Shown here one piece after another: positions 1 through 55,062 of a DNA stretch of 55,062 nucleotides. The notes beneath the pieces were generated by a model that had not been told where the DNA came from, did not search any database, and was given only the letters and a program-made list of their open reading frames with translations. This stretch comes from a virus. The translations under genes were made by a program, and so were the position numbers. Position 1 is the stretch's first letter. Each line of letters begins with the position of its first letter. Location of the stretch: positions 1-55,062 of IMG/VR virus record IMGVR_UViG_3300012156_000001; one strand, written 5' to 3'.

Positions 1-123
1 GCTTCATCGAAAATCAAGGCATACAAAAAGGAAATTGATGGATTGATTTTCGTAAAAGAGCGGATGATACCAATTGTTTTTACCGGAGAAATCGGAAACT
101 GCCAGCGTCCGCTAAGAGGGCAA
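1..123. repeat. 123-bp terminal direct repeat identical to 54940..55062 (contig closes on itself; unique length 54,939 bp)
   Basis: Base-by-base identity of 1-123 with 54940-55062 read directly from the sequence. Confidence 0.97.
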
Positions 124-369
124 ACAGCGCAGGGCGAACGAATTGCCTTAGCAAACAGTGAGACTATTCCGGCGGGTGCCTACATCGATTTTACGATCTC
201 ATGCCTGTGTGATGCACATATCAATGCCGTGAGGGAGTGGCTTGATTACGGAGCGTTGAGGGGTATGGGACAGTGGCGAAACAGCGGGAAAGGCCGCTAT
301 TTGTGGGACGAGATGGATGATTCTGGCAATGTGATTGGAGGAAACCGTGACTTTGAAGCAAGAAAATAA
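1..369 (+). CDS. 3' part of junction-spanning gene (5' part at 54667..55062); 213-aa hypothetical protein with RAMP (Csm3/Cas7)-like motif pattern
   Basis: Frame open from base 1, stop TAA 367-369. Same codon phase as 54667 ORF across the 123-bp overlap. C-terminal GMGQWRNSGKG fits GxGxxxxxGxG glycine loop. Confidence 0.7.
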   Translation, partial: ASSKIKAYKKEIDGLIFVKERMIPIVFTGEIGNCQRPLRGQTAQGERIALANSETIPAGAYIDFTISCLCDAHINAVREWLDYGALRGMGQWRNSGKGRYLWDEMDDSGNVIGGNRDFEARK

Positions 370-6486: not shown

Positions 6487-7242
6487 GTGTTTTTTCACAT
6501 GCTGCTAAAGGCTAACTGGAAAGAGGGAAGATTTCAAGGCCATTTGATCGAAAGAGGTTCTTTTGTATCATCCCTTCCCAAAATTGCCGAAGAAACAGGG
6601 CTAACAATTAATGAGGCTAGAGGAACCATAAAAAACTTAAAATTAACGGGCGAAATCACAGTCACATCACATTCAAAATACAGCGTATTTACAATAAAAA
6701 ACTATGATTTCTATCAAGACGTTAACGTACAGAACCACAGTCAGACCACAGACACTTCACAGGCAGACCACAGGCAGACCACATTCACTTCACATTCTGT
6801 TGACATTCTGTTAACAACAATAGAAGAAGTAGAAGAAGAAGAGAAAGAAGTAGAAGAAGGGAAGAAAGAAAGAAGGGAAGAAAAAGACTATAGTGTCATA
6901 GATGCCACTTGTCAGACTGATGTCCGACGAATCGTTGACGCTTGGAACCAGTGCGGAGCCGTGGAAGTAAAAACGCTATCCACCACCAGCAAGCGCTATC
7001 AAATGCTGAAAGCCAGAATTAAGGAGTACGGAGTTGATCAAGTGTTAGAAGCCATTGGAATGATCAAAAACAGACCATTTCTGTTAGGGCAAAATAAAAA
7101 TGGTTGGATGATAAGCTTTGAATGGTTTGTTAAGCCCAATAACTTCCCGAAGGTGCTGGAAGGTAATTATCAGGATCATAACCGAGGGAAAGTCGATGGT
7201 GGCTATAACGAAATGTTGAAAGGATGGGCAGAAAGTGAATAG
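6487..7242 (+). CDS. replisome organiser / DnaD-like initiator (SPP1 G38P-like); real start probably upstream near 6415
   Basis: Winged-helix N-terminal signature (HRKILEWEWY..FFHMLLKANWKEG..ERGSFVSS). DnaD-like C-terminus (RPFLLGQNKNGWMISFEWFVKPNNFPKVLEGNY). Confidence 0.8.
   Translation: MFFHMLLKANWKEGRFQGHLIERGSFVSSLPKIAEETGLTINEARGTIKNLKLTGEITVTSHSKYSVFTIKNYDFYQDVNVQNHSQTTDTSQADHRQTTFTSHSVDILLTTIEEVEEEEKEVEEGKKERREEKDYSVIDATCQTDVRRIVDAWNQCGAVEVKTLSTTSKRYQMLKARIKEYGVDQVLEAIGMIKNRPFLLGQNKNGWMISFEWFVKPNNFPKVLEGNYQDHNRGKVDGGYNEMLKGWAESE
6731..6890 (+). repeat. iteron cluster plus purine tract inside organiser gene (candidate ori)
   Basis: CAGACCACA at 6742, 6764, 6775. CACTTCACA at 6753, 6786. 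CATTCTGTT at 6793, 6804. GAA-rich tract 6823-6887. Confidence 0.5.
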
Positions 7243-28415: not shown

Positions 28416-28814
28416 ATGAGTAAATTACAGGATTTATTATCCTTACCGGATGTATCAGAGTTTACCGAAGAGGTGTATGTCAGTGAAAGATTGGGAACGT
28501 TTATCGTCAGGCCAATGAGTGAAAAAGAGTGGTCTACTTATCGCACCAGGAGCCAGGGAAAGATTAATAAAAGAGGTGCAGACTTCGATAGTAGCAAATT
28601 CAATTTGCTGATTATAACCGGACATGTCATTGAGCCGAATCTCGCAGATGCAGAATTTCTTTCCAAAGCAAAATGCGCGACGGTAGCCGATTTTGTTACG
28701 AAAAAATTCTTAGCAGGTGAAGTGCAGGCATTGTCCGATGGAATTGTTCGGGCCAGCGGATTCGACGCAGAAGAAAACGATATTAACGACGAAATTAAAG
28801 AAGTAAAAAACTAA
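28416..28814 (+). CDS. tail assembly chaperone (XkdN-like)
   Basis: Position between tube and tape measure; ends in slippery A AAA AAC. Confidence 0.75.
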   Translation: MSKLQDLLSLPDVSEFTEEVYVSERLGTFIVRPMSEKEWSTYRTRSQGKINKRGADFDSSKFNLLIITGHVIEPNLADAEFLSKAKCATVADFVTKKFLAGEVQALSDGIVRASGFDAEENDINDEIKEVKN

Positions 28815-29002
28815 TCATGGAAGACGGGGAAATGGCGGCTTGTCAATATGCCGTATTGAACATGGGATACAAGCCGTCAGAGTTCGCCAATCTTCCACGA
28901 GCAGAAAAAGTATTCGTGATTGCGTGTATTGAAAACAAAATTGATGCAGAGAAAAAGCGGCTGGCAGAAATAAAATCAAGGCCAAAGAAGAGGGGCAGGT
29001 GA
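28805..29002 (+). CDS. -1 frameshift extension of the tail assembly chaperone
   Basis: Heptamer A_AAA_AAC 28805-11. The -1 frame stays open to 29002, just before the tape measure start. Confidence 0.6.
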   Translation, partial: KKLIMEDGEMAACQYAVLNMGYKPSEFANLPRAEKVFVIACIENKIDAEKKRLAEIKSRPKKRGR

Positions 29003-29008
29003 TGATCA

Positions 29009-30988
29009 ATGTCTACAATTAGCAGCACGCTTGCATTGCAGGACAAAATATCAAAACCTATGCAGAGCATAGTAAAAGCCATGAATAGCACTCTTGTTGT
29101 CATACGCAGCATTAAAGGCGCGGAGCTCGGTCCAGAATTCGCACAGGCGGCTGCTGATGCCAAACTTGCGACAGCGGCGATTGATCAAATGAATCAGAGT
29201 CTCAACGAGGTCAAAAATAATAAGGGATTCGAAAGCCAGGAAGGACAGATAACAGCTTTTAACGCAGCGCTGGAAGTATCGCGCAAAGGGTTGGCGCTTG
29301 TCAAATCGGGAATTAATGAGATTGGCAAATTAACAGGCTTGTATGATGTTCAGAAACAGGCTGAAACTTCCCTCGCAGTCGTTTTAGCCAACCAGGGCGT
29401 AGCGTTTGAAGATTACAAATCTATCCTCGAAGAAGCATCTGCGATACAGGCAAAAACCACTATCGGCGACGAAACAATGATTGCTGGACTAGCAGAGCTG
29501 GCGACTTATATATCGGACACAGAAGCCCTAACTGCACTTATGCCTACATTTGCGGATTTTGCCATAGGTATGAACGAGGGAGCGCCAGAGCTTGGAACAC
29601 AAGCAGCGGTTTCTTATGCCACAGCATTGGGCAAAGCGCTCCAAGGACAGTACGAAGGACTTACGAAAAAGGGATTTATAGTATCTGAATCCCAAAAAGC
29701 AGTTCTCGCACTACAGGACGACAGTGTAAAGTCCTTGAAGACTTTAGACAAACAAACCAGGGCTTACGTGGAAAGTGTAGGTCTTGAAGCTGCCAAGGTA
29801 GCTATAGTTGCCGAAGTAACAACGGAAACATGGGGCGGTTTAGCAGAAGCGATTGCTGGAACCGATGCTGGAAAGATTATCCAAATGAATAACGCCACGG
29901 GTGACTTAAAAGAAACTATAGGCGGCGAATTGTATCCATACGTGCTTCAATTCAAGGAATTATTAACATCCGCATTGAATCCAGCCCTTGAAGCTATTGC
30001 AGAGCACATGGATGTGATTGCACCGATCGCAATCGTACTTGCGGCAACGCTAGGTACACTGGCGGTAATAATCGGAGTGGTTACAGTGGCGCAGTGGTTA
30101 TGGAATACTGCTATTTTAGCTAATCCCTTGACATGGATAATAGTAGGCATTGTTGCTGTAGTTGCGGCGATAGCCGTGTGGATAAACTCGATGGGGGGAG
30201 TTCGGGCTGCATGGGAAACAGTAGTCGATGCGGTTCTTTCTGCCAGTGACAAGGCTAATCTCGGGTTCAAGACCGGCGTTTATGCCGTGCTGAATCTTTG
30301 GGATAAAATGAGTTTGGGAATGTCAAAGGCAGGGGCCGCAATAGCCGGATATATGGGTGACATGAAGGTAAACGTACTTACTATTTTGCAAAACATGGTT
30401 AATGGCGCTATTGACATTATTAATAAGTTTATCGGTGCCCTGGGAAGTATTCCGGGGGTAAGCATCGAAGCAATAGAACACGTTACTTTTGCTGCCACTG
30501 CCGCAGCGGAAAATGAAGCGGCAAAACAGGGAAGAGCGGCCGATATCGCAACAGCCGAAGCAGATATGATTTGGAATCAGCTGAAACGGCAGGAAGCTAT
30601 AGACACAATGGCTGCCGAAGCTCGTGCAGCGCATTCTGCGCGTCAGGCCAATATAGCAGAGCTTAGGGCGACTGGCGACAATGGCGATCTTATTGAGGGG
30701 ATTTTTAAATCGGCTTCCGGTGTTGAAAGTGCGCTCGGTGATGTAACTTCCGGATCGGGTGGTGGAAAAGCACTCAAGACCACCGGCGAAGTCAAGATTT
30801 CCGGCGAAGACATTAAACTATTGATGGATTTGGCAACCATCGATTACCAGGTAACCTATCAGACATTAACGCCACAGCTGTCTTTGAATATTGGCACAGT
30901 CAGGGAAACAGCTGACGTTAATTCTATTGTCGAAGAGATAGCGGCAGTGCTTGAAGAAGCTGCGGATTCGAGGGTGGTGCTGGCATGA
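29009..30988 (+). CDS. tape measure protein
   Basis: 659 aa, Ala-rich helical, central hydrophobic segments, position. Confidence 0.85.
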   Translation: MSTISSTLALQDKISKPMQSIVKAMNSTLVVIRSIKGAELGPEFAQAAADAKLATAAIDQMNQSLNEVKNNKGFESQEGQITAFNAALEVSRKGLALVKSGINEIGKLTGLYDVQKQAETSLAVVLANQGVAFEDYKSILEEASAIQAKTTIGDETMIAGLAELATYISDTEALTALMPTFADFAIGMNEGAPELGTQAAVSYATALGKALQGQYEGLTKKGFIVSESQKAVLALQDDSVKSLKTLDKQTRAYVESVGLEAAKVAIVAEVTTETWGGLAEAIAGTDAGKIIQMNNATGDLKETIGGELYPYVLQFKELLTSALNPALEAIAEHMDVIAPIAIVLAATLGTLAVIIGVVTVAQWLWNTAILANPLTWIIVGIVAVVAAIAVWINSMGGVRAAWETVVDAVLSASDKANLGFKTGVYAVLNLWDKMSLGMSKAGAAIAGYMGDMKVNVLTILQNMVNGAIDIINKFIGALGSIPGVSIEAIEHVTFAATAAAENEAAKQGRAADIATAEADMIWNQLKRQEAIDTMAAEARAAHSARQANIAELRATGDNGDLIEGIFKSASGVESALGDVTSGSGGGKALKTTGEVKISGEDIKLLMDLATIDYQVTYQTLTPQLSLNIGTVRETADVNSIVEEIAAVLEEAADSRVVLA

Positions 30989-49988: not shown

Positions 49989-50215
49989 CGTGTTGCATTT
50001 CGTGTTGCATAGCATTACATTTACTCATTTTTTGTTCTATTTTTACGGTATATATTATGTACTTCGTTATCCGCAAAGCGCTTAAGTACGGGCATTCGTT
50101 GAATTTGCTTTGTTTTTCAACTTTCCAATTAACGGGCTTTTAACCCGTATACCGTTATTTAAAAGTGGCGTATTTACGTTGAATTTCCCGGTTCGTGTTG
50201 TTTTTCGTGTTGCAT
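49989..50215. repeat. attP-region direct repeats (candidate integrase arm sites)
   Basis: CGTGTTGCAT at 49989, 50001, 50206 and CGTGTTGTTT at 50194. Two pairs with 12-bp spacing, about 205 bp apart. Confidence 0.5.
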
Positions 50216-51418
50216 GAACAATAAAAATTCATTTTTTGAATCTTCCGAATCTTCTTTTTCAAACAAGACAAGCCACGCTTGATATTTTTTTTGGTCAACT
50301 TCGCCGACCTCTGGTTTTATTATATTTTCAAAATAATTATCAATCATGGCATCCACTTTTCTCCGTTCGTCGGGAAGCGTCTGCATATATACGCGTTTCA
50401 TTATCCGATCAGATTTCCAACCTCCCCTTTCTTGCGCATATTTATCAGGTATTCGAAGCAGAGCCATTATAGACGCGCTAAGGTGGCGCAGATCATGAAA
50501 GGTCATATGCGGTAGGCCATTGTCGTTCAATAATCGAATCCACCGTCGGTACAAAGTGTGTCCGCTCATCGGTACAAGTATATCACCATCTACCTGGTGA
50601 ATCAACTGCATAATGTAAGGTGGAATATGATGGGTACGATTCCGGTATTGATTCTTCGCCATGTCCTTGCGGATGGGCTTGCCGCAAACATCAACAATAA
50701 CCTCTGCGATCCTGATACAATCCCCTGATATAGATTTTGATTTTGTCAAACCGCGCACTTCTGACATAGAAAATGATAACCATGCGGCTAATAATACGGC
50801 TAATTCAATTTCGGTACCACGAATGATATCTATCACGGTTTTTGCCGGCAACAATTCCGGTACCCGTTCTTTTATTGGAGGCAATTCCACCTCACATACA
50901 AGCTCTTTGCGATACTTTTTCAAAACAGCAGCAATAAGAGCCCACTCATTTCTTAATCGCTTTGCGGAGATAGTTCTAATACCGTTTTTAATAGATTTTC
51001 GCTGCGATTCCATGTTGACTGCTTCCTGTAAAATTTCTTCATCAAAATCCTTTAACTGCATGTCCATCAAATCGCGAAAACCGCATTTCTGGATGCATCG
51101 ATAATCTTGGATAGTCGTGGGGGAGCGCTCTAGTGGGATGCGACTGTCTATGTATTTGTCAATAGCTTCTGTGAGCGTCATATCGCCATGTATTGCCGGT
51201 TTCTTTGCTGGAGTCTTACCTTTATCCATCTGAAACTGCGCAGCCATATACTGAGCCTCTTTGGCGCTGCCGGCCGTAAAAGATTCATACACCCGCCGTT
51301 GTTTCTGCTTTCCGTTCCCGTCCAGCACTGGCTGACCGGTTGCTTCATAGACCGGTTCGCTATGGCTGTAGGCCAAACACCGCCAGGAGCCACTTGGTAG
51401 TTTTTTTGCTTTTGCCAT
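50174..51418 (-). CDS. int: tyrosine integrase
   Basis: HDLRHLSAS and GGWKSDRIMKRVY catalytic motifs; ATG 51418 6 nt after GGGAGGG (the ORF-track N-extension has no RBS). Confidence 0.9.
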   Translation of the reverse strand: MAKAKKLPSGSWRCLAYSHSEPVYEATGQPVLDGNGKQKQRRVYESFTAGSAKEAQYMAAQFQMDKGKTPAKKPAIHGDMTLTEAIDKYIDSRIPLERSPTTIQDYRCIQKCGFRDLMDMQLKDFDEEILQEAVNMESQRKSIKNGIRTISAKRLRNEWALIAAVLKKYRKELVCEVELPPIKERVPELLPAKTVIDIIRGTEIELAVLLAAWLSFSMSEVRGLTKSKSISGDCIRIAEVIVDVCGKPIRKDMAKNQYRNRTHHIPPYIMQLIHQVDGDILVPMSGHTLYRRWIRLLNDNGLPHMTFHDLRHLSASIMALLRIPDKYAQERGGWKSDRIMKRVYMQTLPDERRKVDAMIDNYFENIIKPEVGEVDQKKYQAWLVLFEKEDSEDSKNEFLLFMQHEKQHEPGNST

Positions 51419-51554
51419 TATCGTCCCTCCCTGACCCTGAGTATAAAAATGCACCCTTGCCGAAAAAATTCCATTAGCAGCAGGGGCAAATTTAAGGTTT
51501 GTGGTAAATACTTTTGCGTGTCGAAACAAGTCGAACCTGTGTTCTATTTTCCTG

Positions 51555-51583
51555 TTGACATGATGTTGGTGTGCAGTTATAAT
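51555..51583 (+). promoter_or_regulatory. consensus sigma70 promoter pointing into the 3' end of the repressor gene
   Basis: -35 TTGACA 51555-60, 17-nt spacer, -10 TATAAT 51578-83. Confidence 0.6.
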
Positions 51584-51645
51584 ATACACATCGGCAAATC
51601 TGTAATGAATATTTGGTTTGCCAGTAGTGAAAGGGGTGTGTATAC

Positions 51646-51756
51646 GTGGATAGTCTCAAAAACGAACTGCATGAATTGATTGACAAAATACATAGCGCAA
51701 AATTCCTGAAAAGTCTCATTAGTTTAATCAGGAGTGTTTTAGAGAGCGAGGATTAG
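51646..51756 (+). CDS. micro-ORF (36 aa)
   Basis: GTG about 8 nt after GAAAGGGG; ELHELIDKIHSAKFLKSLISLIRSVL; overlaps repressor stop by 4 nt. Confidence 0.35.
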   Translation: MDSLKNELHELIDKIHSAKFLKSLISLIRSVLESED

Positions 51757-52154
51757 TCTTCGCTCTCTTTTTCTACCCTTTCTACTCTGTCGATACAAGC
51801 CTTGAATTCCTCATAGATGCTTTCCCATTGTTCGTCCGGAAGTGTTTCTACTATCTTTAGAAGCATTGTAGCCATATTCTTCTTAATGGGACTTCCCACT
51901 TCCATTATCTTCCCGAAGCGTCCATATGTTTCTTCTTCTATGGAAAGATCTTTTTTCATATTGCCCTTGCCGGTCCGCAACCAAACTTCACTTATACTTA
52001 ACTTTTCGCATATTTTCGAAATGTGTATGTCTTTGGGGCTCCTTGTTCCCAGCTCCCACATTGCTACCGTGGACGAACCGACCAATATTTCCTTGCTGAA
52101 TTCTGCTTGGCTCATATTAAGACTTTCCCTTACTTTTTTTATACGCTCTTTCAA
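51753..52154 (-). CDS. CI-like XRE-family repressor
   Basis: TTG start 6 nt after AGGAGG; LNMSQAEFSKEILVGSSTVAMWELG HTH; divergent from early promoter. Confidence 0.8.
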   Translation of the reverse strand: MKERIKKVRESLNMSQAEFSKEILVGSSTVAMWELGTRSPKDIHISKICEKLSISEVWLRTGKGNMKKDLSIEEETYGRFGKIMEVGSPIKKNMATMLLKIVETLPDEQWESIYEEFKACIDRVERVEKESED

Positions 52155-52199
52155 ATTAACACCTCCTTATAAATATAATATATCATATTTTCGCTCACT

Positions 52200-52272
52200 A
52201 AGCAAGTAAAAATTAAAAAAAAGTGTTGACATCTTACTCACGCAGTGGTAATATATACTTACAAAGCAAGTA
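52200..52272 (+). promoter_or_regulatory. early rightward promoter with flanking operator repeats
   Basis: -35 TTGACA 52226-31, 17-nt spacer, -10 TAATAT 52249-54. AAGCAAGTA at 52200-08 and 52264-72. Confidence 0.7.
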
Positions 52273-52329
52273 GGGAGTGAGGTGAGATACATAATATTGA
52301 AAATCAAAGATGTTGAAAGAAAGGAGACT

Positions 52330-53124
52330 ATGAACGAGTTAATTAGAATCAATTATGAATCAGAGCAGCCGACGGTATCAGCGAGGGATTTATATGATTT
52401 GCTTTCAAGTGAAAGCGGATTGGCAGGAACCGAGAGATTTAGCAAGTGGTTTGAACGATATGCCGGATACGGATTTCAGCAGGGAATCGATTTTTCAACC
52501 CCGAACAAAAAAGTACGGGTTCAAATGGAGGGACACAGAACCGTATCGAGGGAGATTGAAGACTATGACTTATCGGTTGACATGGCAAAACAAATTTGCA
52601 TGCTCCAAAGAACTGATAAGGGAATGGAGATAAGACAACACTTTCTCGATTTAGAAAAAGCTTGGAACACTCCCGAACAGGTCATGGCCAGAGCATTAAA
52701 GATGGCCGAGCAATCCATGGCCAGTTTGAAAGACCGCTGCCGGTTCTTGGGTGGACAGGTAGTGGAGCAACAGAAAGTAATCGAGCAGTTGCAACCAAAG
52801 GCATCGTACTACGACTTGATTCTCCAGTGCAAGGATTTGATTGCGACAACGATTATCGCCAAGGATTACGGGATGTCGGCGATAGCGTTCAATAAAATGC
52901 TTCACGAAATGGGAATTCAGTATCAGCAGAGCGGAACTTGGGTTTTATATGCAAAATACCAAGGACAAGGGTATTTGAAGCCAAAAACTCATAATTACGC
53001 CGATGCCGCAGGTATTCAACATTCAAGAGAGCATTCCTATTGGACGCAGAAGGGCAGATTGTTTCTTTACGATTTATTGAAACAAGAATGTATATTGCCC
53101 TTGATGGAAAGGAAGATTGCTTGA
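52330..53124 (+). CDS. antirepressor (AntA-like N-domain, KilAC-like C-domain)
   Basis: VSARDLYDLL..FSKWFERY.. N-domain; IIAKDYGMSAIAFNKMLHEMGIQY..LYAKYQGQGY C-domain. Confidence 0.7.
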   Translation: MNELIRINYESEQPTVSARDLYDLLSSESGLAGTERFSKWFERYAGYGFQQGIDFSTPNKKVRVQMEGHRTVSREIEDYDLSVDMAKQICMLQRTDKGMEIRQHFLDLEKAWNTPEQVMARALKMAEQSMASLKDRCRFLGGQVVEQQKVIEQLQPKASYYDLILQCKDLIATTIIAKDYGMSAIAFNKMLHEMGIQYQQSGTWVLYAKYQGQGYLKPKTHNYADAAGIQHSREHSYWTQKGRLFLYDLLKQECILPLMERKIA

Positions 53125-54057: not shown

Positions 54058-54059
54058 AA

Positions 54060-54666
54060 ACGCGATGGATACGCATGGTTTGGCCGAGGGCGGCGTTGAT
54101 TAGCAAAGGAATGGCAACGCAATGAGATGCGATGGTATAGCTTTGTATGGGGTGGCAATGGAGTGGCTTAGGGTGGCGATGGCAAAGCAAAGCGATGGTT
54201 GGCAGAGCAAGGCAGGGCTACGAACGGTAAGGGCAGTGCTAACCGCCGATTGGCAAAGGAGCTGCTCGGCAAGGTAGGGCGTTGCAAAGGCATTGCAGGG
54301 CACGGGGCGGCAAGGGCGAGGCGCGGAATGGTGTCGCAAAGGGTGGCATGGCAAGGGAAACGCAGCGCGTTGCAAAGGCATAGCGCAGGATAACATGGCG
54401 GAGTATGGCAAGGGCGCAGCAAAGCAAGGCAAAGTGCTGCAAAGGAGTGGCGAAGCTGTGGGTAGCAGCGCAAAGGCAGAGCATCGCTGGGCGTGGTTGT
54501 GGATAGTCTTGAATAGCCGAGGAACTGCACAGCCAGGCCAGGCAGGTCACAGCAAAGGAACAGCCGTGCACAGTGCAGCAGCGCAAAGGAAAAGCCTAGC
54601 CCAGCAACGCAAAGGCACAGCACAGGATTCAAAAACTAAAACATCAAAAAGAAGAGGAGAGCAGAA
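54060..54666 (+). repeat. T-poor purine-rich non-coding array with ten same-strand GCAAAGG copies
   Basis: GCAAAGG at 54103, 54253, 54284, 54336, 54372, 54439, 54470, 54552, 54583, 54609. GGCAAGGG three times; GCGATGG variants at the left end. Confidence 0.85.
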
Positions 54667-55062
54667 ATGAAGGAATTAAAAGTAAGAATAACATTTACGG
54701 AGGAAATTTTAGGAACGGCAAGCAGTGATCCGGAAATTCACAGCACTTTTATCGCATCCAACGCACCCGACGCACCGACACGTGCCGAAGAAGTCGCAGC
54801 GGTTGGAGTTGACGAAGTGATTGAAAAATCAATGACCATCTTCCCGCGCAACAAAGAGGGACATCCCATCATGTGGGACTATCAAGTGAAGGGATTTTTT
54901 AAAGATGCCTGTGGCTGCTTGCGGAAGGTGCCCAATTCGGCTTCATCGAAAATCAAGGCATACAAAAAGGAAATTGATGGATTGATTTTCGTAAAAGAGC
55001 GGATGATACCAATTGTTTTTACCGGAGAAATCGGAAACTGCCAGCGTCCGCTAAGAGGGCAA
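54667..55062 (+). CDS. 5' part of junction-spanning gene (continues at 1..369): RAMP-like hypothetical protein
   Basis: ATG 6 nt after AGAGGAGAGCAG; open to the window end; the last 123 nt duplicate 1-123. Confidence 0.7.
   Translation, partial: MKELKVRITFTEEILGTASSDPEIHSTFIASNAPDAPTRAEEVAAVGVDEVIEKSMTIFPRNKEGHPIMWDYQVKGFFKDACGCLRKVPNSASSKIKAYKKEIDGLIFVKERMIPIVFTGEIGNCQRPLRGQ
54940..55062. repeat. second copy of the 123-bp terminal repeat
   Basis: Identical to 1-123. Confidence 0.97.

Follow-up and report, generated by a model that had tools for sequence, protein, structure and literature searches.

The window analysed here is the whole of IMG/VR virus record IMGVR_UViG_3300012156_000001 (55,062 nt, positions 1 to 55,062), and our subject is a gene for a small RAMP protein that lies across its two ends, together with an array of tandem pentanucleotides (pentads) upstream of it. 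The pair is probably a system of the VIPR (Viral Interference Programmable Repeat) kind, described in an April 2026 preprint (10.64898/2026.04.26.720920), in which a RAMP protein, Vipr, works with RNAs termed vrRNAs. Sequence comparison showed positions 1..123 to be an exact copy of 54940..55062, and the contig is therefore a circularly closed assembly whose ends overlap by 123 bp, leaving 54,939 bp of unique sequence. The features of the locus are as follows.

1..123, unstranded: assembly overlap of 123 bp, exact copy of 54940..55062
54064..54614, plus strand: candidate vrRNA array, about 100 tandem pentanucleotides in 16 tracts, from period-5 analysis and pattern runs
54655..54660, plus strand: ribosome-binding site GAGGAG, 6 nt 5' of the RAMP-gene ATG, from reading of the sequence
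54667..55062, plus strand: 5' part of the vipr-like RAMP gene, codons 1–132, with strand beta1, the helical insertion (residues ~22–55) and helix alpha1
124..369, plus strand: 3' part of the vipr-like RAMP gene, codons 133–213 and stop, from strand 2 of the thumb hairpin through the G-loop

The open reading frame (ORF) joined across the junction (54667..55062 plus 124..369) is uninterrupted over 642 nt and encodes 213 aa plus a stop codon, as had been proposed in an earlier note made from the letters alone, and public metagenomes hold the identical protein (entry P0001, full-length match). The thumb beta-hairpin spans residues 123–147, starting in the 5' part of the gene with its second strand in the 3' part, which continues with a beta strand (152–159), a helix (162–178) and the G-loop G179–G189 that includes Q182-W183-R184. 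All four motifs that the earlier note had quoted are present, at residues 4–21, 59–82, 137–159 and 177–193; the C-terminal glycine loop is indeed an exact GxGxxxxxGxG (G179-x-G181-x5-G187-x-G189), and the resemblance in size to Csm3 holds.

Read in fives, 54064–54614 resolves into 16 tracts of 4–11 units ending in G (96 pentads in total), most of them set apart by one additional G, which moves the register. The pentads follow the consensus C-A-N-N-G, so that a fixed G-C-A triplet and a variable NN alternate; the information content of positions 5, 1, 2, 3 and 4 is 2.0, 0.41, 0.41, 0.09 and 0.11 bits, the 2.0 bits at position 5 being set by the search pattern, which required G. The earlier note had placed the gene directly 3' of an array of the 7-mer GCAAAGG. 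The position is confirmed, and the true repeat is this 5-nt code, in which GCAAAGG represents the common tract-final pentad CAAAG with the register-shifting G; 10 of the 17 copies in the window lie at 54103–54615, all on the plus strand. Pattern runs on the plus strand of the genome converge on the same region, which holds all five runs of at least five NNNG[GC] units and 8 of the 19 runs of at least six NNNNG units. Across the genome, period-5 power peaks at 54161; over the array there is little period-3 (coding) power, and public gene callers place no gene over it in three of five related contigs (L086, L088 and L090). Tandem Repeats Finder did not detect the array, because only two to three of each five positions are fixed.

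Three samples carry an identical array, and relatives whose vipr gene is 92–93% identical either share this array in full or lack one 26-nt unit of it. One of the latter, the related contig L088, was aligned over its positions 916–1500 with 54058–54666 of the window; its RAMP gene is 92% identical, and its array is shorter by exactly 26 nt, five pentads and the junction G having been deleted from between one GCAAAGG and another. It seems, therefore, that the array gains or loses whole modules, each delimited by GCAAAGG. Apart from this, L088 and the window are identical or nearly so in the array and in the 91-aa gene upstream of it, but their RAMP genes have diverged, a contrast that points to a recombination breakpoint at or within the RAMP gene.

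Fold and homology of the RAMP protein

Scans of the RAMP protein with the Pfam, PHROGs, NCBIfam and PADLOC collections matched no model, and the hidden Markov model check against PF03787 and Cas profiles suggested by the earlier note returned no Cas match in Pfam (PF03787 included), NCBIfam or PADLOC at E-values up to 10. A Pfam scan of 68 family members yielded only noise, with a single member (1/68) matching a Cas6 model at E 0.24. Profile-based comparison was more informative for the broader of two profiles. The first, A1, was built from 31 close homologues and retrieved from the whole PDB only Csm4 and a "Cas7", both weakly; the second, A2, was built from 68 representatives and matched the 200-aa Cas7 of type VII CRISPR-Cas (entries 8YHE and 8Z4J; PMC13069675) at E 6e-6, its best sequence-profile match, and Csm4 at E 6e-4, both matches covering the last beta-alpha-G-loop-beta unit. 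An AlphaFold2 model computed on A2 is confident (pLDDT 91.1, pTM 0.86), being weaker only at a two-helix insertion at residues ~25–55. In a Foldseek search of the PDB with this model, the top 50 of 50 matches were Cas7-type RAMPs, comprising Csm3 from five species, type VII Cas7, Cas7-11 domains, Cmr4 and Csf2, with TM scores of ~0.5–0.55 overall and Csm3 6xn3_F as the best match (E 1.3e-7, TM 0.54/0.55). By this model, the protein is a minimal RAMP of Cas7/Csm3-like type, in which one RRM carries a thumb hairpin and a G-loop, and the A2 profile matches, the AlphaFold model and the Foldseek search together bear out the stand-alone Cas7/Csm3-like RAMP of the earlier note.

The family is very large, with more than 8000 clusters of homologues at 90% identity, and a profile search gathered 1999 clusters at 50% identity, nearly all of ~200 aa; it has no name. 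One BFVD entry, A0A8S5R426 (Siphoviridae sp. ctcMb1, 61% identical), carries the automatic name 'Cas system-associated RAMP superfamily protein', and nearly all remaining members are annotated 'hypothetical'. The viral proteins A0A822ZZ46 (E 5e-13) and A0A8S5R8I9 (E 4e-8) are more distant and have the same fold.

Among known CRISPR effector subunits, Csm3 and Cmr4 provide the best structural matches (Foldseek E-values as low as 1e-7); they resemble the protein in size and share with it the RRM core, the thumb hairpin and the C-terminal GxGxxxxxGxG loop. They differ in that the protein studied here matches none of the RAMP, Csm3 or Cmr4 sequence models, in that the proteins near its gene include no Cas10, Csm2/4/5 or Cas6 and no CRISPR array accompanies it, its neighbours being recombination and replication genes, and in the implied repeat period, which is 5 nt here and 6 nt in CRISPR. 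In an alignment of close homologues, which is not a rigorous comparison, no invariant acidic residue was evident at the position of the catalytic Asp of Csm3. Type VII Cas7 resembles the protein in length (200 aa), is its best sequence-profile match in the PDB and is among its top structural matches; it is a catalytically inactive backbone subunit (8YHE, 8Z4J; PMC13069675). It works, however, in a Cas5-Cas7-Cas14 complex with CRISPR RNA derived from a CRISPR array, and these partners are not present here.

The closest parallel was found in the VIPR literature, which consists of two preprints from one laboratory (bioRxiv 10.64898/2026.04.26.720920 and 10.64898/2026.04.26.720927). In a survey of 2,664 sequences, Vipr was described as a minimal RAMP of ~20 kDa, encoded mostly by viruses and proviruses and usually accompanied by one accessory gene; vrRNAs comprise 9–16 YNNGG repeats from intergenic arrays, so that conserved GGY triplets are interspersed with hypervariable NN pairs; variant repeats (NNNGG, YNNNG and NNNNG) and seven VIPR types were distinguished; and "staggered" arrays were reported, in which consecutive vrRNAs overlap by 1 nt (10.64898/2026.04.26.720920). 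The Vipr-vrRNA complex binds double-stranded DNA, with NN read by a 1-nt-skip rule, and represses transcription, its natural targets being competing phages, satellites and prophage regulators (10.64898/2026.04.26.720920). Type II is exemplified by Escherichia phage SUSP1 and a Pseudomonas fulva prophage (10.64898/2026.04.26.720920, 10.64898/2026.04.26.720927), and the SUSP1 repeats are expressed and co-purify with Vipr (10.64898/2026.04.26.720920). Cryo-electron microscopy places one Vipr protomer on each repeat; in SUSP1 Vipr, H17 and D177 recognise G1, R138 holds G2, which stacks on W178, R179 forms part of the pocket for Y3, and a helical bundle (K33) handles the skipped target base (10.64898/2026.04.26.720927).

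We located the SUSP1 vipr gene in KT454805 at 28474–29061 on the minus strand (195 aa), with 12 perfect YNNGG repeats upstream of it on the same strand at 29170–29229. By hhalign, A2 aligned with SUSP1 Vipr collinearly from first to last residue at E 5.7e-5, and, over 183 columns, with a profile of 36 SUSP1-family sequences at E 1.1e-4. In the alignment, the helical insertion follows strand beta1 in each protein and the G-loops coincide (GvGDWRPrfGRF on GmGQWRNsGkGRY), the motif GxG[D/Q]WR being shared in both hhalign alignments. SUSP1 W178 and R179 correspond to W183 and R184 here, and in the set of homologous loci described below the tryptophan is kept in 76 and the arginine in 75 of the 76 readable loci. 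The two G1-reading residues differ, with H17 and D177 of SUSP1 corresponding to T17 and Q182, replacements that fit a repeat that does not keep the GG doublet of YNNGG.

These data also bear on whether the protein could be a Cas6-like endoribonuclease whose sole task is to process a repetitive phage transcript, with no part in guiding. Cas6 is likewise a RAMP, and the regular extra-G junctions of the array could be cleavage sites, but the structural matches are the backbone-forming Cas7 subunits and not Cas6, the sole Cas6 signal is that of the one family member at E 0.24, and a repeat every 5 nt, each bringing one fixed triplet, agrees with one protomer per repeat. We regard a processing enzyme of this type as extremely unlikely.

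Linkage of gene and array, and their genomic setting

The pairing of gene and array was followed in 81 loci, comprising the contig L081 and 80 loci with homologues 42–73% identical to the query, which are from Clostridia, Coriobacteriia, Bacteroidales, Planctomycetota, Verrucomicrobiota, Synergistaceae and others. Pentad tracts adjoin the gene in all 81 loci, being more abundant downstream in 61 and upstream in 20, and the array is substantial (23–143 pentads) except in about five loci, most of which are on short or truncated contigs. In 40 of the 42 loci whose flanks are both 3 kb or longer, the 400-nt stretch richest in pentads anywhere in the locus is found no more than 1 kb from the gene. 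Pentad coverage is higher on the plus strand than on the minus strand in 75 of the 81 loci, and mean coverage is 0.20 beside the gene against 0.045 far away. Tracts contain 4–14 pentads across the family, and arrays have a median length of ~600 nt and reach ~2.7 kb. The register shift recurs as well, since a single nucleotide fills 523 of the 716 short inter-tract gaps, and in 498 of these it is G. The pairing of the RAMP gene with a same-strand array is conserved throughout a very large family, and the co-occurrence check proposed in the earlier note, which had tied the RAMP to a purine-rich repeat region, gave a positive answer in all 81 loci.

The identity of residue 17 appears to vary with the repeat. 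Where it is T or S, pentad position 1 is mostly C, and where it is M or L, mostly A (Mann-Whitney p 1.3e-5, a value that ignores phylogeny). The M/L group comprises eight loci (L024, L043, L050, L056, L059, L060, L062 and L066), with A exceeding C in seven and equalling it in L050, and with the strongest preference in L059, L062 and L066. This pattern, uncorrected for phylogeny, is suggestive of a possible protein-RNA co-variation. Over the 6925 pentads of the 81 loci, the variable three bases are enriched for AAA, TTT and GGC, and TAG, CTA and TAA occur at 0.45, 0.34 and 0.63 of expectation. Codon-derived guides could give such departures, as could a general genomic bias, of which the depletion of TAG and CTA would be part.

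The breadth of the family is relevant to a further explanation, in which the protein is an anti-CRISPR decoy, a Cas7/Csm3 mimic that poisons the type III or type VII effector complexes of the host. Such a role would agree with its being phage-borne and with Csm3 and type VII Cas7 being its closest structural neighbours. A mimic would, however, be expected to resemble the host subunit, and outside the G-loop there is no detectable sequence similarity to host Cas7; moreover, no single host complex would select for 42–73% identity from Clostridia to Planctomycetota and Bacteroidales, and the protein is always accompanied by its own repeat array. A decoy function is, in our assessment, highly improbable.

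Elsewhere in the window, two regions are pertinent to the interpretation of the locus, a lysogeny module (50174–53124) just upstream of the block formed by the array and the RAMP gene, and a replication-initiator gene with internal repeats:

50174–51589, minus strand: tyrosine integrase, lysogeny module
51753–52154, minus strand: cI-like helix-turn-helix repressor, lysogeny module
52282–53124, plus strand: AntA/ANT antirepressor, lysogeny module
6487–7242: DnaD-like replication-initiator gene
6734–6816: adjacent 11-nt tandem repeats, ACCACAGGCAG in 4.5 copies and ACATTCTGTTA in 3.3 copies, inside the DnaD-like gene

Given the integrase, cI-like repressor and antirepressor, the phage is temperate, and the block lies on the early rightward strand. 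The 11-nt repeats look like candidate origin iterons inside an initiator gene, as in lambdoid phages.

This arrangement allows a reading in which the array is an element acting at the DNA level, such as iterons, an origin, a centromere or a recombination hotspot, and the RAMP-like protein is a DNA-binding factor that is not RNA-guided. The locus does have the lysis-lysogeny switch on one side and genes for replication and recombination on the other, and promoter and terminator prediction around the array gave no plus-strand signal. Yet array and gene point the same way in 75 of 81 loci, irrespective of which comes first, and this fits a co-transcribed RNA better; the fold and G-loop are those of RNA-binding RAMPs; the homologous repeats of SUSP1 are expressed and recovered with Vipr; and the window has a separate candidate origin in the DnaD-like gene. 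A purely DNA-level element is therefore improbable in our judgement.

Downstream of the RAMP gene lie genes for an AAA/SbcC-like ATPase, RecT, a PD-(D/E)xK exonuclease of the DUF3799 family and RusA. The operon with an ATPase, an annealase and a nuclease described in the earlier note stands as far as these genes are concerned, but their link to the RAMP gene is not conserved across the family, for the set recurs only in close relatives and with its order changed; in a relative with 76% identity, the RAMP gene is also found beside RecT, the DUF3799 exonuclease and the ATPase. No conserved partner gene was detected by tblastn of the window neighbours against the 80 loci or by blastp clustering of flanking ORFs, which came from a crude ORF caller that is noisy inside arrays, and the first genes on either side of the vipr-plus-array block belong to no recurrent family. 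The small ORFs flanking the RAMP gene match no family. A 61-aa ORF at 523–708, two genes downstream, is a predicted coiled coil with weak bZIP-like and ZapB-like matches; an ORF of the same length follows the RAMP gene in L088, and none was called in L090. Cas families were matched by none of 18 proteins scanned (the RAMP protein, seven flanking ORFs and ten further downstream, covering ~8 kb downstream and 1.5 kb upstream), and no CRISPR-like tandem array was found in the window, in agreement with the earlier note.

The same neighbours are the basis for considering the protein as a coater of single-stranded nucleic acid that works with the RecT/exonuclease module in place of a missing SSB, a role that the earlier note had thought conceivable for want of a recognisable SSB. 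A tblastn search found no SSB in the window, and the gene stands beside RecT, the exonuclease and the ATPase both here and in the 76%-identical relative. Against this, no neighbouring gene is conserved across the 81 loci, SSB genes occur in the flanks of 19 of them (directly upstream in two), and such a role leaves the universally linked pentad array unexplained. The proposal has accordingly lost its footing, and we consider it very unlikely.

Probable assignment to VIPR and proposed mechanism

Taken together, the RAMP protein and the 550-nt region upstream of it are assigned to a VIPR-type system of a temperate phage of gut Clostridia, with a probability of roughly 80%, because four lines of evidence fit: its fold, its homology along the full length, a phage setting in which no cas genes were found, and a pentad array linked to the gene on the same strand. 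In common with VIPR, the protein is a single-RRM RAMP of ~200 aa with a thumb, a G-loop and a helical insertion after strand beta1, and its full-length collinear profile alignment with SUSP1 Vipr keeps the W and R of the G-loop; the gene is borne by phages and prophages, with no cas genes or CRISPR array found near it; and beside it, on the same strand, lie tandem pentanucleotides that alternate a fixed triplet with two variable bases. The repeat itself differs, being C/A-N-N-N-G (G-C-A alternating with NN) instead of YNNGG, and fits the YNNNG and NNNNG variants of the preprint. The organization of the arrays differs too, since those found here are long series of tracts of 4–14 pentads joined by a single extra G, whereas characterised vrRNAs are discrete RNAs of ~100 nt with a pseudoknot tail; the short tracts with an extra G resemble the staggered arrays and may correspond to them. 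We have filed the clade as a YNNNG-like, staggered-array VIPR variant.

Several observations weigh against this assignment. The hhalign probabilities against SUSP1 Vipr are moderate (56–66%). A pattern scan found no canonical run of four YNNGG in the window, and its tracts, with 4–11 pentads, are shorter than the 9–16 repeats of characterised vrRNAs. An Rfam scan of the array matched no family, and hence no hammerhead, and a conserved 3' tail or ribozyme was not found. No accessory vap gene recurs across the loci at the blastp level, a further difference from VIPR as described, and near-identical vipr-plus-array blocks (vipr 92–93% identical) are followed by different downstream genes. Transcription, processing and protein binding of the array are what we infer for this locus by analogy. 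Finally, no natural target emerged under any skip rule from ~1 Mb of related phage DNA or from seven exact IMG/VR scans, which are weak tests, the searches being exact or rule-based while natural VIPR targets tolerate mismatches. Nine tracts of the window, compared under 12 position and skip rules with the ~1 Mb of related loci, gave no excess over shuffled controls, and 961 joined tracts under 20 rules gave no genuine excess over theirs. A rule with three bases read and 2 nt skipped returned three hits against none in controls, an artefact in which the 5-nt period is that of the arrays themselves. The seven IMG/VR scans, which covered two registers and two junction models, produced one hit only, in L085, intergenic in a luteovirus-like RNA-virus contig, which we dismissed as a chance match.

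If the system works as its characterised relatives do, the array would be transcribed and would yield vrRNAs, as the SUSP1 and P. fulva work suggests. Since no plus-strand promoter is predicted, the array would probably be part of an early rightward transcript starting near the divergent cI/antirepressor region. Vipr protomers would polymerise along the RNA, one per pentad, burying the G-C-A triplet (GGY in SUSP1) and exposing the two variable bases. The resulting helical filament might then read a gapped sequence in the double-stranded DNA of a competing phage or a resident prophage, and, once bound, could block its transcription. As to which bases are presented, information content favours positions 3–4 of CANNG, and structural analogy to Y-N-N favours positions 2–3. 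The extra-G junction is a candidate unit boundary, processing site or bulge.

The clade may even be a mechanistically distinct variant of VIPR, considering its other fixed triplet (G-C/A-A as against GGY), its possibly re-tuned pocket, its extra-G arrays and the apparent absence of an accessory gene; it could differ from the 1-nt-skip rule of type II in pairing or in processing, or present many short guides per transcript. We advance this idea only tentatively and consider it doubtful.

The new kind of RNA-protein module envisaged in the earlier note does not hold, as the locus matches the VIPR systems of the April 2026 preprints, and the anti-defence, RNA-processing and coating roles offered there give way to the activity of the characterised relatives, which is RNA-guided binding of double-stranded DNA that silences competing phages. 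The kind of system is thus already known, and what stands out is the altered repeat code with matching substitutions, the extra G, the apparent lack of an accessory gene and the size of the clade relative to the 2,664 sequences of the preprint survey. VIPR systems have been proposed as viral ancestors of CRISPR RAMP effectors, and, with only a 20-kDa protein and an RNA as components, they make a minimal platform for programmable DNA binding. The change of triplet, paired with substitutions at the G1-reading residues, offers a handle on how the repeat code is recognized and on its re-engineering. This altered-code VIPR clade is extremely common in temperate phages of gut anaerobes, beside lysis-lysogeny and replication modules, and thousands of "hypothetical proteins", together with the ORF-free purine-rich stretches that adjoin them, can now be labelled.

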